Virus record (IMG/VR): IMGVR_UViG_3300030102_007788
Location: 1 to 64,000 of that record
From: a virus
DNA length: 64,000 nucleotides
Reading direction: 5' to 3' (one strand)
Each line of letters opens with the position of its first letter. Position 1 is the stretch's first letter. This document shows positions 52,580 to 55,456 of this stretch, piece after piece. The notes under the pieces were generated by a model. The model saw only the letters and a list, made by a program, of their open reading frames with translations, was not told the DNA's origin and did not search any database. The position numbers were made by a program, and so were the translations under genes.

Positions 52580-53033
52580 ATCCGCCTTCGCCTCTTTGGC
52601 TATTTTCTAATGTTTTCATTTCAATCCATTCTGGCGTGTGGCAACTTTCAATTATGAGTTGAGCCACTCTATCGCCGGGTTTTACGTCAAACTTGTTAGC
52701 TGAACCGAACATAGACTCGTAAACACTCGGCTTTAAATTATAGCCTTCAAAGTTTAGGTTTATCAATAAAATTTTTATTTCACCCCGATAACCTGAATCC
52801 ACGACCCCAGCCATGACATCTATTCCTCTTTTTACAGCCAGTCCACTTCTAGGGGCAATCCGTCCATAAAAACCTTCAGGAATTTCTACGCTAATTCCTG
52901 TCGAAATTAATGTTCTTTGGCCCGGCTCCAAAGTGGCGTACTCTGTTGAAAAAAGGTCAAACCCGGCATCAGAAGTGTTAGCTCGGTAGGGAGCTAAGGC
53001 TTCTTTGTTTATTTTTTTATAATTTATTTTCAT
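52560..53033 (-). CDS. dut: dUTPase (trimeric)
   Basis: AGFDL, PRSGLA, GVVDSGYRGEI, GDRVAQL, RGEGGFGSSG (motifs I-V). Confidence 0.97.
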   Translation of the reverse strand: MKINYKKINKEALAPYRANTSDAGFDLFSTEYATLEPGQRTLISTGISVEIPEGFYGRIAPRSGLAVKRGIDVMAGVVDSGYRGEIKILLINLNFEGYNLKPSVYESMFGSANKFDVKPGDRVAQLIIESCHTPEWIEMKTLENSQRGEGGFGSSGR

Positions 53034-53434
53034 AGTTTAACGCAGTCAATTCCGTAAAAATCAAAAATGTTTAACGCCGCGACATCTCTATCATAAACTT
53101 CTTCATAGACGACTTTTTTAACACCGTATGCTGCTATCATAGTAGCACATGAGGAGCATGGAAGTAGCGTGCATGCAAGGAGATTTACTTCCCCTCTTTT
53201 GACTAAACTCAAGCAGTTAACCTCAGCATGAATCATATAGGGTCTGCGGTGGTTTCGGTTCCGAAAAAATTGATACGAGACATCTTTTCCCGGAGCTAAA
53301 CCGTTGTAGCCAACTGCAACTATCATATTTTTGCTGTTAAGAGCACAGGCTCCGACTTTTTTGTAGATGTCCTCACTCCTTTGCGCAGCGGTCCTAGCAA
53401 TATCTAACGCGTATTTTTCCCAAGAAACTCTCAT
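53030..53434 (-). CDS. dCMP deaminase
   Basis: KVGAC, GYNG, HAEVN, PCSSC zinc-binding motifs. Confidence 0.92.
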   Translation of the reverse strand: MRVSWEKYALDIARTAAQRSEDIYKKVGACALNSKNMIVAVGYNGLAPGKDVSYQFFRNRNHRRPYMIHAEVNCLSLVKRGEVNLLACTLLPCSSCATMIAAYGVKKVVYEEVYDRDVAALNIFDFYGIDCVKL

Positions 53435-53453
53435 AATCTTCCTTAAAAATCAC

Positions 53454-53524
53454 AACCTAAATCAAACAGGTTGCCAAATCAAGAAAAAAAAGTTGTTGAC
53501 TTCCCTGCCTGAGTCAATTACAGC
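53454..53524. promoter_or_regulatory. Divergent sigma70-like promoters
   Basis: Minus strand TTGATT-N17-TAGGTT (53454-53482); plus strand A-tract then TTGACT (53496-53501) with a weak -10 (TACAGC). Confidence 0.45.
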
Positions 53525-53815
53525 TTGCTCACGTAGCACTTCCGTCTTGCTACGGTAAAAGGTAGGCGGATCCGCAATCTATGTGTCCGGCTCTGCTGTG
53601 GAGACTTGCAACCGGAGGAACTAACTGGCGTGAAAAGGGCGCTTCGTTAGGCGAGTAGTATAGGCGATGTCATATGGGTGGAAACTACCACGCACCCAAA
53701 AAAGGCTAGCCGGGGAGAATTCTCAGGGAAAAGTAAAAAGATTGCCGATGTTCTGGAATAGCCGCCAAAACGGGGAAAGTCTCCGTTTCACTTCGACTTT
53801 CTAGGGAAAAGTTTT
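53525..53815 (+). ncRNA. Candidate structured non-coding RNA or replication-origin element (unassigned)
   Basis: ORF-free, GC-rich island with several stem-loops and palindromes in an otherwise gene-dense, AT-rich genome. No known family was recognised. Confidence 0.45.
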
Positions 53816-53857
53816 ATATATATTTATTTATTTAACTATAGTTAACTTTAATTAAAC

Positions 53858-54454
53858 ATGGATTTTAATTACAAAAATATAGGTATATCCGGGGTCGCAG
53901 GATCCGGCAAAAATACTCTAGCTGAAATACTGGGGCTGTTTTTTTCTAGATTACAGTTGCCGATTAAAGAGCTTTCAATTGCAAGGAACTTAAAGCAGGA
54001 GATAAGCCCCGTCTGTAAGAGTCTTTATTCTATTGATTCTCTTAATTGCTCCAGAGAGGAGAAAAATTTAATCAGACCTATGCTGGTTGCTCACGGAGAA
54101 ATAAAAAGAAAAATGACAGAGGGTACTCATTGGACCTCATTACTGGAGAAAGATTTAGAAAAAGATAAAATAAATATTATTACCGACATAAGATACGCTG
54201 AATATCCCGAGGATGAATATTTTTGGCTTACAAAAAAAGCAAACGGCGTATTGATTCACGTTTCAAGGTACGACGAAATCGATGGAGAAAGACATTTCAT
54301 AAAACCTGCAAATCCGTCTGAGGAGAAAAACGACCATCGAGTAAAAAAATTATCAGATTTTTCCTTAAATTGGAAAACTGAAAAGAATTATGGAGATATG
54401 ATCTTTAACTGCCGAAAATTACTCAAGTGGCTTAAAAAAATATATGTCGAATGA
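53858..54454 (+). CDS. Deoxynucleoside monophosphate kinase-like protein
   Basis: P-loop GISGVAGSGKNT, A..LKQ, R.....G...R, IITDIRY. Confidence 0.82.
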   Translation: MDFNYKNIGISGVAGSGKNTLAEILGLFFSRLQLPIKELSIARNLKQEISPVCKSLYSIDSLNCSREEKNLIRPMLVAHGEIKRKMTEGTHWTSLLEKDLEKDKINIITDIRYAEYPEDEYFWLTKKANGVLIHVSRYDEIDGERHFIKPANPSEEKNDHRVKKLSDFSLNWKTEKNYGDMIFNCRKLLKWLKKIYVE

Positions 54455-54884
54455 TACCGTAGAGGATAGTTTATGCCAACCTATCGTAGCTTATTGCGGT
54501 AGAAATGCTAGTATAAATTTTTCCCCTGAAAATGCCAATAAAGCTTTAGGTTTTTCTTTCGACAATCACTACGCTTTATTCAATTATGAGATTCGAATAG
54601 TAAGATTCAACGGTAAAGATGTAAAAGCAACAGAAAATAATGAGAATTATTATCTAGTAGAAATTTTCATATGCTCAGATGACTTGAATGATGATTCTTT
54701 TTGCGATTCTTATATTTTCAGAGAAGAAAATTTAGAAGATTTAATTGAGTATGTTATAATATTGCCACGTCTCTTTAAAAGACACCATCGTTATGTTCTT
54801 GCCATGGAGAGAGATGACGTGTGTTTTTTTAAAGATTTCGGGTATAAGGTTGACTTATGGAAACAGGCTGCTGGGATAATATAA
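54444..54884 (+). CDS. Hypothetical protein
   Basis: Operonic, overlaps both neighbours. Confidence 0.55.
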   Translation: MSNDTVEDSLCQPIVAYCGRNASINFSPENANKALGFSFDNHYALFNYEIRIVRFNGKDVKATENNENYYLVEIFICSDDLNDDSFCDSYIFREENLEDLIEYVIILPRLFKRHHRYVLAMERDDVCFFKDFGYKVDLWKQAAGII

Positions 54885-55456
54885 CGGATAATTGTCTAGT
54901 AAATAATGTAAAAAATAGCAATTGTGAGGAAAGCTTACTAGAACTGTCAAACAGGCATACTGGACTTTGCTTCAAAATAATGAAAAAATACGCAAAGACT
55001 TTTTGCGCCAATGATATCTGCATCCAAGAAAAACACGCTGAAAAAAATTTAATTATTTGGAATTCAGCAAAGACTTTTAACACTGAAAAAAATGTAAAAT
55101 TTTCTACTTGGCTAGCCAATCAAGTTAAATACAGCTGCCTTAATGAAATTAACAAAAAGTCTAAAGACAGACTAGTAACGCTTGAAGATGAGATGCTGGA
55201 CGTGTTAAAAGATCCACCAGAAGAAGAGGATTCTGGTATCTTTGAGTATACTAATAATATTTTAAAGCAACTTCGAGATAACAGGATTCAAAACATCTTC
55301 TCAATGAGGTATTCGAAAGAGGTTAAAAAGCCTTCATGGTCTCTAATTGCAAAAAGACTTGATATCAGCACTCAAACAGCTATAAACCTACATAATAGAG
55401 GCTTGGAAATTTTAAGAAAAAAAATCAAAAGTAATAAATTTTTAGACAATGTTTAA
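54857..55456 (+). CDS. Phage-encoded sigma70-family sigma factor (regions 2 and 4)
   Basis: SAKTFN.EKNVKFSTWL..QVK...LN (region 2) and IF.MRY...SW..IAKRLDIS.QT...LH.RGL..LR (region 4 HTH). Confidence 0.85.
   Translation: METGCWDNITDNCLVNNVKNSNCEESLLELSNRHTGLCFKIMKKYAKTFCANDICIQEKHAEKNLIIWNSAKTFNTEKNVKFSTWLANQVKYSCLNEINKKSKDRLVTLEDEMLDVLKDPPEEEDSGIFEYTNNILKQLRDNRIQNIFSMRYSKEVKKPSWSLIAKRLDISTQTAINLHNRGLEILRKKIKSNKFLDNV

Follow-up and report, generated by a model that had tools for sequence, protein, structure and literature searches.

The first 64,000 nucleotides (nt) of IMG/VR virus record IMGVR_UViG_3300030102_007788, hereafter the window, contain on the plus strand, between a dCMP deaminase gene and a gene for a deoxynucleoside monophosphate (dNMP) kinase-like protein, a compact RNA with three pseudoknots, which belongs to an uncatalogued family and has a conserved promoter of its own. 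With moderate confidence we regard positions 53530-53817 as a self-contained gene for a structured noncoding RNA of approximately 285 nt, which stands alone, is expressed early and belongs to a family outside Rfam 15. A first-pass annotation made from the sequence alone had offered two explanations for this part of the window, and the first of these, a structured RNA of about 290 nt, is strongly supported by compensatory changes among 41 homologues, by a promoter at a fixed distance from the fold and by the absence of any match in Rfam.

Homologues were collected by exact-pattern scans with conserved stretches of the RNA in IMG/VR, marine metagenomes (48 loci) and two contigs of metagenome-assembled genomes (MAGs), and removal of duplicates left 41 distinct full-length sequences, mutually 71-99% identical, which constitute alignment A4 and underlie the counts given below. 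In a first three-way alignment the segment 53530-53812 was far more conserved than both of its flanks, and the left-hand gene differed. Named phage genomes yielded no match to the DNA or to the kinase, and only distant matches to the dCMP deaminase. As a single sequence, 53496-53811 folds no better than chance (minimum free energy z = -0.49 on the plus and -0.10 on the minus strand, relative to dinucleotide shuffles); the helices were derived by RNAalifold, a custom helix scan and inspection. The resulting structure has 12 supported helices, 67 base pairs and three pseudoknots, and standard pairs occupy 97.3% of the 2,728 cells of A4, as compared to 86.5 +/- 0.3% with shuffled partners and only 30-44% when partners are slid by one to three columns. 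Compensatory changes occur in 34 of the 67 pairs, and cells in which both partners have changed number 342 against an expected 99.6 +/- 9.6, a value that none of 500 shuffles reached. Both the conservation and the covariation that the first-pass annotation had proposed to look for in relatives were thus found. G-U pairs, which on the other strand would be A-C mismatches, are abundant, indicating that the RNA is read from the plus strand, and throughout the RNA region the homologues differ by insertions and deletions that are not multiples of three.

The architecture that emerges (Table 1) is one in which an H-type pseudoknot at the 5' end stacks on a long-range helix, which in turn closes a four-arm junction; a second pseudoknot is formed within one of the arms, and a third, of 8 bp, is formed between the 3' tail and the apex of another arm. 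This last pseudoknot, K1, is one column out of register in eight rows of A4 and its complementarity was therefore read by motif, which gave complementary strands in all 41 sequences, 33 with GGAGACUU/AAGUCUCC and eight with GAAGACUU/AAGUCUUC, and the distribution of these variants on the RNA tree requires two separate double changes. The P7 hairpin is accompanied by an additional inserted hairpin in about 40% of the relatives. Three helices considered early on (GGCGAU/AUUGCC, the hairpin ACGGGG/CUCCGU and a pseudoknot GAAAGUC/GACUUUC) were dropped as the alignment grew, because the long-range helix and K1 account better for the covariation. The features listed in the first-pass annotation are all present, albeit not all of them as the stems supposed, so that this observation was borne out in part. 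Covariation in the relatives confirmed four of its stems (CGTAGCA/TGCTACG, TCCGG/CCGGA, CTAAC/GTTAG and GGGTG/CACCC), while the palindrome GCGGATCCGC does not form a hairpin, its left half being the 3' strand of PK-A and its right half the start of the long-range helix with 53739-53748. The proposed stem AAACGGGGA/CTCCGTTT varies on one side only and competes with the better-supported K1. The stem of the palindrome GAGAATTCTC is invariant across the homologues, and covariation can therefore neither confirm nor refute it.

Table 1. Coordinates of the RNA gene, its promoter and helices, and of associated features (positions are those of the window unless a locus is named)
Feature	Position	Strand	Remarks
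RNA gene, ~285 nt	53530-53817	+	conserved block with diverged flanks; ends as suggested by conservation
A-run (8 A), UP-element-like	53484-53491	+	sequence; A-rich run precedes GTTGAC in all phage copies
-35 hexamer TTGACT	53496-53501	+	GTTGAC(A/T), same position in every phage copy
-10-like hexamer TACAGC	53519-53524	+	family consensus TAnAAn; 17 nt after -35
P1 hairpin	53532-38 / 53548-54	+	5 of 7 pairs compensatory
PK-A pseudoknot	P1 loop 53541-47 / 53564-70	+	6 of 7 pairs compensatory, 100% of cells paired; A-rich linker between strands
Long-range helix, closes multi-helix core	53571-72 + 53574-80 / 53739-45 + 53747-48	+	4 of 9 pairs compensatory, 100% paired
P2 and P2a	53586-90 / 53612-16 and 53594-96 / 53608-10	+	6 of 8 pairs compensatory jointly
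K1 pseudoknot	P2 apical loop 53600-07 / 53777-84	+	GGAGACUU with AAGUCUCC; duplex -13.4 kcal/mol
P3 hairpin	53621-25 / 53646-50	+	4 of 5 pairs compensatory; tip length variable
P4, two segments, encloses P5	53663-65 / 53709-11 and 53669-71 / 53704-06	+	varies on one side only
P5, inside P4	53676-80 / 53693-97	+	3 of 5 pairs compensatory
PK-B pseudoknot	53655-59 / P5 loop 53684-88	+	one varying pair, U-A to G-U
P7 hairpin	53750-56 / 53765-71	+	4 of 7 pairs compensatory; alignment imperfect here
Three purine repeats GG(G/A)AAA(A)GU and near-invariant 3' tail	53725-53812	+	repeats at 53725-34, 53772-80 and 53803-12
AT-rich spacer to kinase start	53813-53857	+	45 nt, 8.9% G+C
dCMP deaminase gene	53030-53434	-	PF00383, E 2.9e-17; diverges leftward from gap
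dNMP-kinase-like P-loop gene	53858-54454	+	phrog_139 deoxynucleoside monophosphate kinase, E 4.3e-10; opens rightward block
Unrelated RNA in same slot, ~400-500 nt	L086:1894-2500, L089:1884-2500		A-run and TTGACA promoter, strong terminator
Low-G+C island	L056:1900-5430		zinc-ribbon ORF between resolvase and 80-aa ORF; ~250 nt of conserved AT-rich sequence after RNA

The RNA is preceded by an A-run and a -35 hexamer, both rightly singled out in the first-pass annotation, and by a -10-like hexamer which a simple promoter scan missed because only three of its six bases agree with TATAAT. Every phage copy repeats this arrangement, with the A-run, GTTGAC(A/T), a 17-nt spacer and TAnAAn followed after 7-9 nt by P1, and this fixed layout suggests that the RNA probably starts at approximately 53530; in the island copies described below the -35 element is TTGTCT. 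At its other end the RNA is almost invariant over its last 50 nt or so (ACGGGGAAAGUCUCCGUUUCACUUCGACUUUCUAGGGAAAAGUUUAU), an invariance partly imposed by the search patterns with which the homologues were collected. The possibility that this tail is a promoter motif used throughout the genome was ruled out, as it has no other occurrence in the 170 kb. Distances between the three purine repeats are 42-64 nt from the first to the second and always 32 nt from the second to the third; repeats 1 and 3 lie outside helices, while the AAG of repeat 2 pairs in K1. In one clade (L002, L004, L009, L032 and L053), which is without orf146 and the dCMP deaminase and which carries a compensated G-C to A-U change in P2a, each of the three GGGAAAAG repeats shows a G-to-A change at the equivalent position, and even here each retains GGA. 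As this triple change represents a single evolutionary event, it constitutes weak evidence. The GGGAAAAG repeats were ruled out as DNA iterons, since their spacing varies by 22 nt.

No Rfam 15 family matched anywhere in the window at gathering scores, the outcome of a scan that the first-pass annotation had also proposed; when the RNA region was searched up to E = 10 only chance matches were obtained (E 2.5-8.2, far under the gathering scores), and neither seven homologue loci, searched up to E = 10, nor the island loci gave anything recurrent. ARAGORN detected no tRNA or transfer-messenger RNA (tmRNA) in the window or in the island loci, so that the earlier statement that no such hallmark could be recognised holds, and our literature search found no description of this RNA.

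The record is a single contig of 170,406 bp with a guanine-plus-cytosine (G+C) content of 39.4% and an estimated completeness of 100% (CheckV). On a crude map of its open reading frames (ORFs) the RNA lies in a gap of 423 nt without genes (53435-53857), the largest in the window, with a leftward block of 10 ORFs on one side and a rightward block of 64 ORFs and 50 kb on the other; the claim that the largest gap coincides with the divergence of transcription was thus upheld. The description of the segment as GC-rich is correct in that 53530-53812 has 50.5% G+C, about two standard deviations, as computed over 200-nt windows, above the genome mean, but several coding regions exceed this value; the almost pure AT tract reported to follow is confirmed. 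The kinase-like gene gave a weak match to PF04275, under the cut-off. The kinase, orf146 and sigma-70-like genes overlap end to start at 54444-54454 and 54857-54884 (window 54444-55456), an arrangement suggesting that these three genes, which open the rightward block, are translationally coupled. A terminator scan flagged an inverted repeat, GCAACCTGTTTGATTTAGGTTGT, followed by a T-run, at 53452-53474 on the minus strand, within the dCMP deaminase leader. We found no integrase, resolvase or reverse transcriptase in the phage, and integration of the phage at the RNA gene was ruled out on this ground.

The gene order hsp20, orf80, dUTPase, (dCMP deaminase), RNA, kinase, (orf146), sigma factor recurs in more than 40 phage contigs, and phages with the RNA, dozens of large uncultured ones, occur in many marine samples (Tara Oceans, JGI metagenome records). 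A kinase-based search of IMG/VR returned 17 loci, of which 13 have this RNA, two distant loci have none, and the remaining two, L086 and L089, in which the genes are likewise arranged as dUTPase or dCMP deaminase, gap, kinase, orf146, sigma factor, carry an unrelated conserved RNA in the slot. The latter is likewise uncatalogued and has the same style of promoter, but it is longer, ends in a strong intrinsic terminator of its own (GCCCCCG..CGGGGGC plus a U-run), after which a promoter-like TTGAAA precedes the kinase, and shows neither similarity to the 285-nt RNA nor a match in Rfam.

Intact copies of the RNA are also present in four independent bacterial assemblies (L024, L036, L056 and L058, the last being part of a Verrucomicrobia MAG), with variants in L035 and L017. 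These copies lie in a low-G+C stretch within bacterial sequence of 52-60% G+C, in the order tRNA-Arg(CCG), a 61-aa ORF (o61), a 213-aa resolvase (PF00239), variable small ORFs, an 80-aa ORF (o80) and the RNA, beyond which follow an AT spacer, a G+C-rich hairpin or pseudoknot and then nuoA. What the islands carry is the promoter-plus-RNA module, with no kinase and no conserved ORF downstream. A flanking direct repeat of the tRNA end was sought at the island and none was found. Approximately 45 nt past the island RNA there is an element GCCCC..UGGAG..GGGGCUCCA (L056:2140-2190 on the minus strand, L059:1265-1310, L035 and the end of L051), whose stems are kept while its loops vary; it can form a hairpin or an H-type pseudoknot, is possibly a terminator, and matched no Rfam family at gathering scores. 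The host-like MAG possesses its own canonical RNase P RNA (221 bits), tmRNA and signal recognition particle (SRP) RNA, and by BLAST the RNA was detected in just one of 26 genomes of the MAG's family and one of 401 sampled from its phylum, which together rule out a host housekeeping RNA captured by the phage; a weak BLAST match in a second Verrucomicrobiota genome was dismissed as an A/T-rich chance match.

Island and phage copies appear to have been exchanged. Between L056 and L035 identity is 93% in the island flanks but drops to 79% in the RNA, and on the RNA tree the island copies are split between two distinct, well-supported clades that have different phage clades as neighbours, thereby indicating that the module has passed between phages and islands more than once. 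In L059, a contig of a Dehalococcoidia-labelled MAG, and in L051, a phage left flank (dUTPase in both, and the dCMP deaminase too in L059) is joined across the RNA to an island or bacterial right flank, the switch in L059 lying inside the RNA itself; these two are more likely assembly chimeras or rare recombinants over the shared RNA.

Taken together, the persistence of the intact RNA in islands that lack the operon, and the fact that its counterpart in the sister phages is a complete promoter-to-terminator unit, lead us to infer a self-contained module rather than a kinase-specific switch. In the mechanism that we propose, host RNA polymerase would transcribe the RNA from its strong sigma-70-type promoter at the onset of infection, and the product would act as a stand-alone RNA, neither a switch for the kinase nor a primer for replication. 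It is probably a protein-binding or regulatory RNA and could, more speculatively, be the RNA part of an RNA-protein complex, or a decoy, whose fold may present three purine tracts (GGRAAAAG, each with GGA) together with the invariant tail to a host or phage partner; the promoter-plus-RNA module might move by recombination between phages and small chromosomal islands.

Several points weigh against a stand-alone RNA of this kind. The phage copies always lie 10-56 nt upstream of the kinase ATG on the same strand, and no convincing terminator separates the two, local hairpins being weak or in competition with K1, so that the RNA may be the 5' part of the operon mRNA. The ends of the transcript are those which conservation of the sequence suggests; the notion of GGA tracts or a decoy is speculative and draws on motif conservation and on the triple G-to-A change of a single clade; and o80, encoded next to the RNA in the islands, offers no lead to a partner, with no Pfam or PHROG match and a model that is a helical hairpin without significant structural neighbour.

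The first two of these observations bear most directly on the possibility, which we consider somewhat unlikely, that the RNA acts in cis as the leader of the early operon to its right, which comprises the kinase, orf146, the sigma factor and the genes beyond, be it as an attenuator, as a processive antiterminator that modifies the polymerase in the manner of put or EAR, or as a structure that protects the 5' end of the mRNA. The RNA indeed heads the 50-kb co-directional block, its structure begins within a few nt of the presumed 5' end, and AAGUCUCC has two mutually exclusive pairing partners, the P2 loop at -13.4 kcal/mol and a local segment at -10.0 kcal/mol; in an attenuator, K1 may thus compete with a local hairpin CGGGG/CUCCG followed by a U-rich run. 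This hairpin, however, shows no compensatory change, the A-tract that would extend it is not conserved, and the U-run behind it is weak, with three U only, while the tail past it is invariant, unlike an expression platform. A leader would moreover be tied to one class of downstream gene, whereas the island copies are intact without the operon, the kinase or any conserved downstream ORF. In L086 and L089 the slot RNA ends in a terminator of its own, beyond which lies a promoter-like hexamer, and in the family under study the AT-rich spacer contains a -10-like TAT(A/T)(A/T)T 17-18 nt after TCGACT of the tail, a pair of elements that could start the kinase mRNA separately. The spacer varies in length (17-56 nt) and in sequence, and in L026 and L041 the kinase ATG lies only 17 nt past the conserved end of the RNA. 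No copy has a Shine-Dalgarno sequence ahead of the kinase ATG, and initiation from the -10-like TATATT, if it occurs, would give a kinase mRNA with almost no leader. A self-contained module remains the interpretation that we prefer.

The second explanation offered by the first-pass annotation, an R-loop or primer-RNA origin with an adjacent unwinding element, found no support, and we regard it as improbable. It would have a purine-rich transcript, hybridised beside the AT tract, prime the leading strand in the manner of ColE1 RNA II or T4 ori(uvsY)/ori(34), and the islands would then bear the same origin so as to have the phage replicate them. The succession of promoter, structured RNA rich in purines (57%) and AT tract is indeed found in phage and island copies alike, the site lies where the leftward and rightward gene blocks diverge, and a module shared or exchanged between phage and island would suit a satellite that copies the origin of its helper. 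The GC-skew check that had been proposed speaks against it: on the two sides of the site the skew is +0.135 and +0.109 for plus-strand genes and -0.057 and -0.057 for minus-strand genes, hence it follows gene orientation equally on both sides and gives no origin signal. There are no iterons, the internal repeats lacking a fixed spacing (42-64 nt apart); the AT tract, the supposed unwinding element, has no conserved sequence and is reduced in relatives such as L026 and L041 to the 17 nt that precede the kinase ATG, and AT-rich spacers are ordinary in a genome of 39% G+C. Three pseudoknots and invariant loops also exceed what primer RNAs are known to need.

A catalytic RNA, self-cleaving or otherwise, in which invariant junction nucleotides and the tail form an active site that might, for example, free the RNA from the operon mRNA, is in our estimation very unlikely. 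Its size and knotted architecture are comparable to those of mid-size ribozymes, invariance extends over approximately 50 nt on the 3' side and over several junction stretches in sequences that are elsewhere 71-87% identical, and as no terminator was found, processing may define the 3' end. The RNA matched no known ribozyme family in Rfam 15, however, its invariance is partly due to the search patterns, and nothing marks a cleavage site.

That the Rfam models missed a very divergent representative of some known class, be it tmRNA, RNase P RNA, a group I intron, 6S RNA or a known riboswitch, is highly improbable, and this notion, having failed every feature of tmRNA, RNase P RNA, group I introns and 6S RNA that was tested, can be considered largely refuted. 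The string GGGGAAAGUCUCC recalls the CR-I motif of RNase P RNA, GAGGAAAGUCC, and UUCGA a T-loop, resemblances and nothing more. RF00010 and RF00011 gave no match to the RNA even at E = 10, and the GGAAAGUC-like strand lies at its 3' end, paired with a hairpin loop, unlike CR-I of RNase P RNA, which is near the 5' end. The topology of the fold differs from that of the known classes, and it has no tRNA-like domain or tag. Intron_gpI did not match either; the RNA is flanked by a promoter and an AT spacer rather than by exons, the helix order does not fit a group I intron, and the left neighbour gene varies among relatives. The consensus, with its multi-arm junction and three pseudoknots, is not the rod with a central bubble of 6S RNA. 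That the MAG has canonical RNase P, tmRNA and SRP RNAs of its own, and that Rfam was null at E = 10, argue in the same direction.

The family under study thus combines what appears to be the strongest early promoter of these phages with an RNA that belongs to no described family, and a 285-nt fold with three pseudoknots and about 50 invariant nt is the signature of a specific role, be it partner binding, sensing or catalysis. The unrelated RNA in the slot of the sister phages, together with retention and exchange in the islands, suggests that the onset of infection includes a so far unrecognised step that relies on RNA. An unlikely but far-reaching extension of this reading is that the module is swapped through recombination between large lytic marine phages and small islands with a resolvase, the island copy hijacking or jamming a phage function in the way of a satellite and its helper or of defence by mimicry, or else that the RNA is a new natural ribozyme.

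Among known systems, the protein-sponge RNAs CsrB and RsmZ resemble the phage RNA in having several conserved purine motifs with GGA. RNAs of the CsrB/RsmZ type display GGA in many simple hairpin loops, whereas the phage RNA has just three GGA tracts in a knotted fold. ColE1 RNA II and the T4 origins ori(uvsY) and ori(34) are alike in promoter, structured or purine-rich transcript, AT-rich stretch and divergent transcription; here there is no skew signal, conserved unwinding element or antisense regulator, and the fold is far more elaborate. The put RNAs of HK022 and EAR are cis-acting processive antiterminator RNAs, put being about 70 nt long with two stem-loops, and, like the phage RNA, they fold straight after an early promoter and head a long co-directional block; they differ in that the phage RNA is also found in islands without such an operon, and an action on polymerase would be hypothetical here. 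Provided that Rfam 15 holds the EAR model, the null result covers it as well. The closest likeness in kind is to GOLLD, ROOL, OLE and the raiA-motif, large ornate structured noncoding RNAs of phages, prophages and bacteria which figure in cryo-electron microscopy work posted as a preprint (bioRxiv 10.1101/2024.12.08.627333). As is the case for the phage RNA, these are stand-alone, promoter-driven and heavily structured RNAs on phage or mobile DNA, conserved by covariation and of orphan function, but there is no similarity to them in sequence or model, and the topology here is one of three pseudoknots around one junction. GOLLD and ROOL are roughly 500-800 nt in length, as compared to approximately 285 nt for the RNA described here, which is small enough for direct structural and biochemical work. 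The family is therefore new while its kind is already known, and with it the collection of orphan ornate RNAs from phages and mobile DNA continues to grow.

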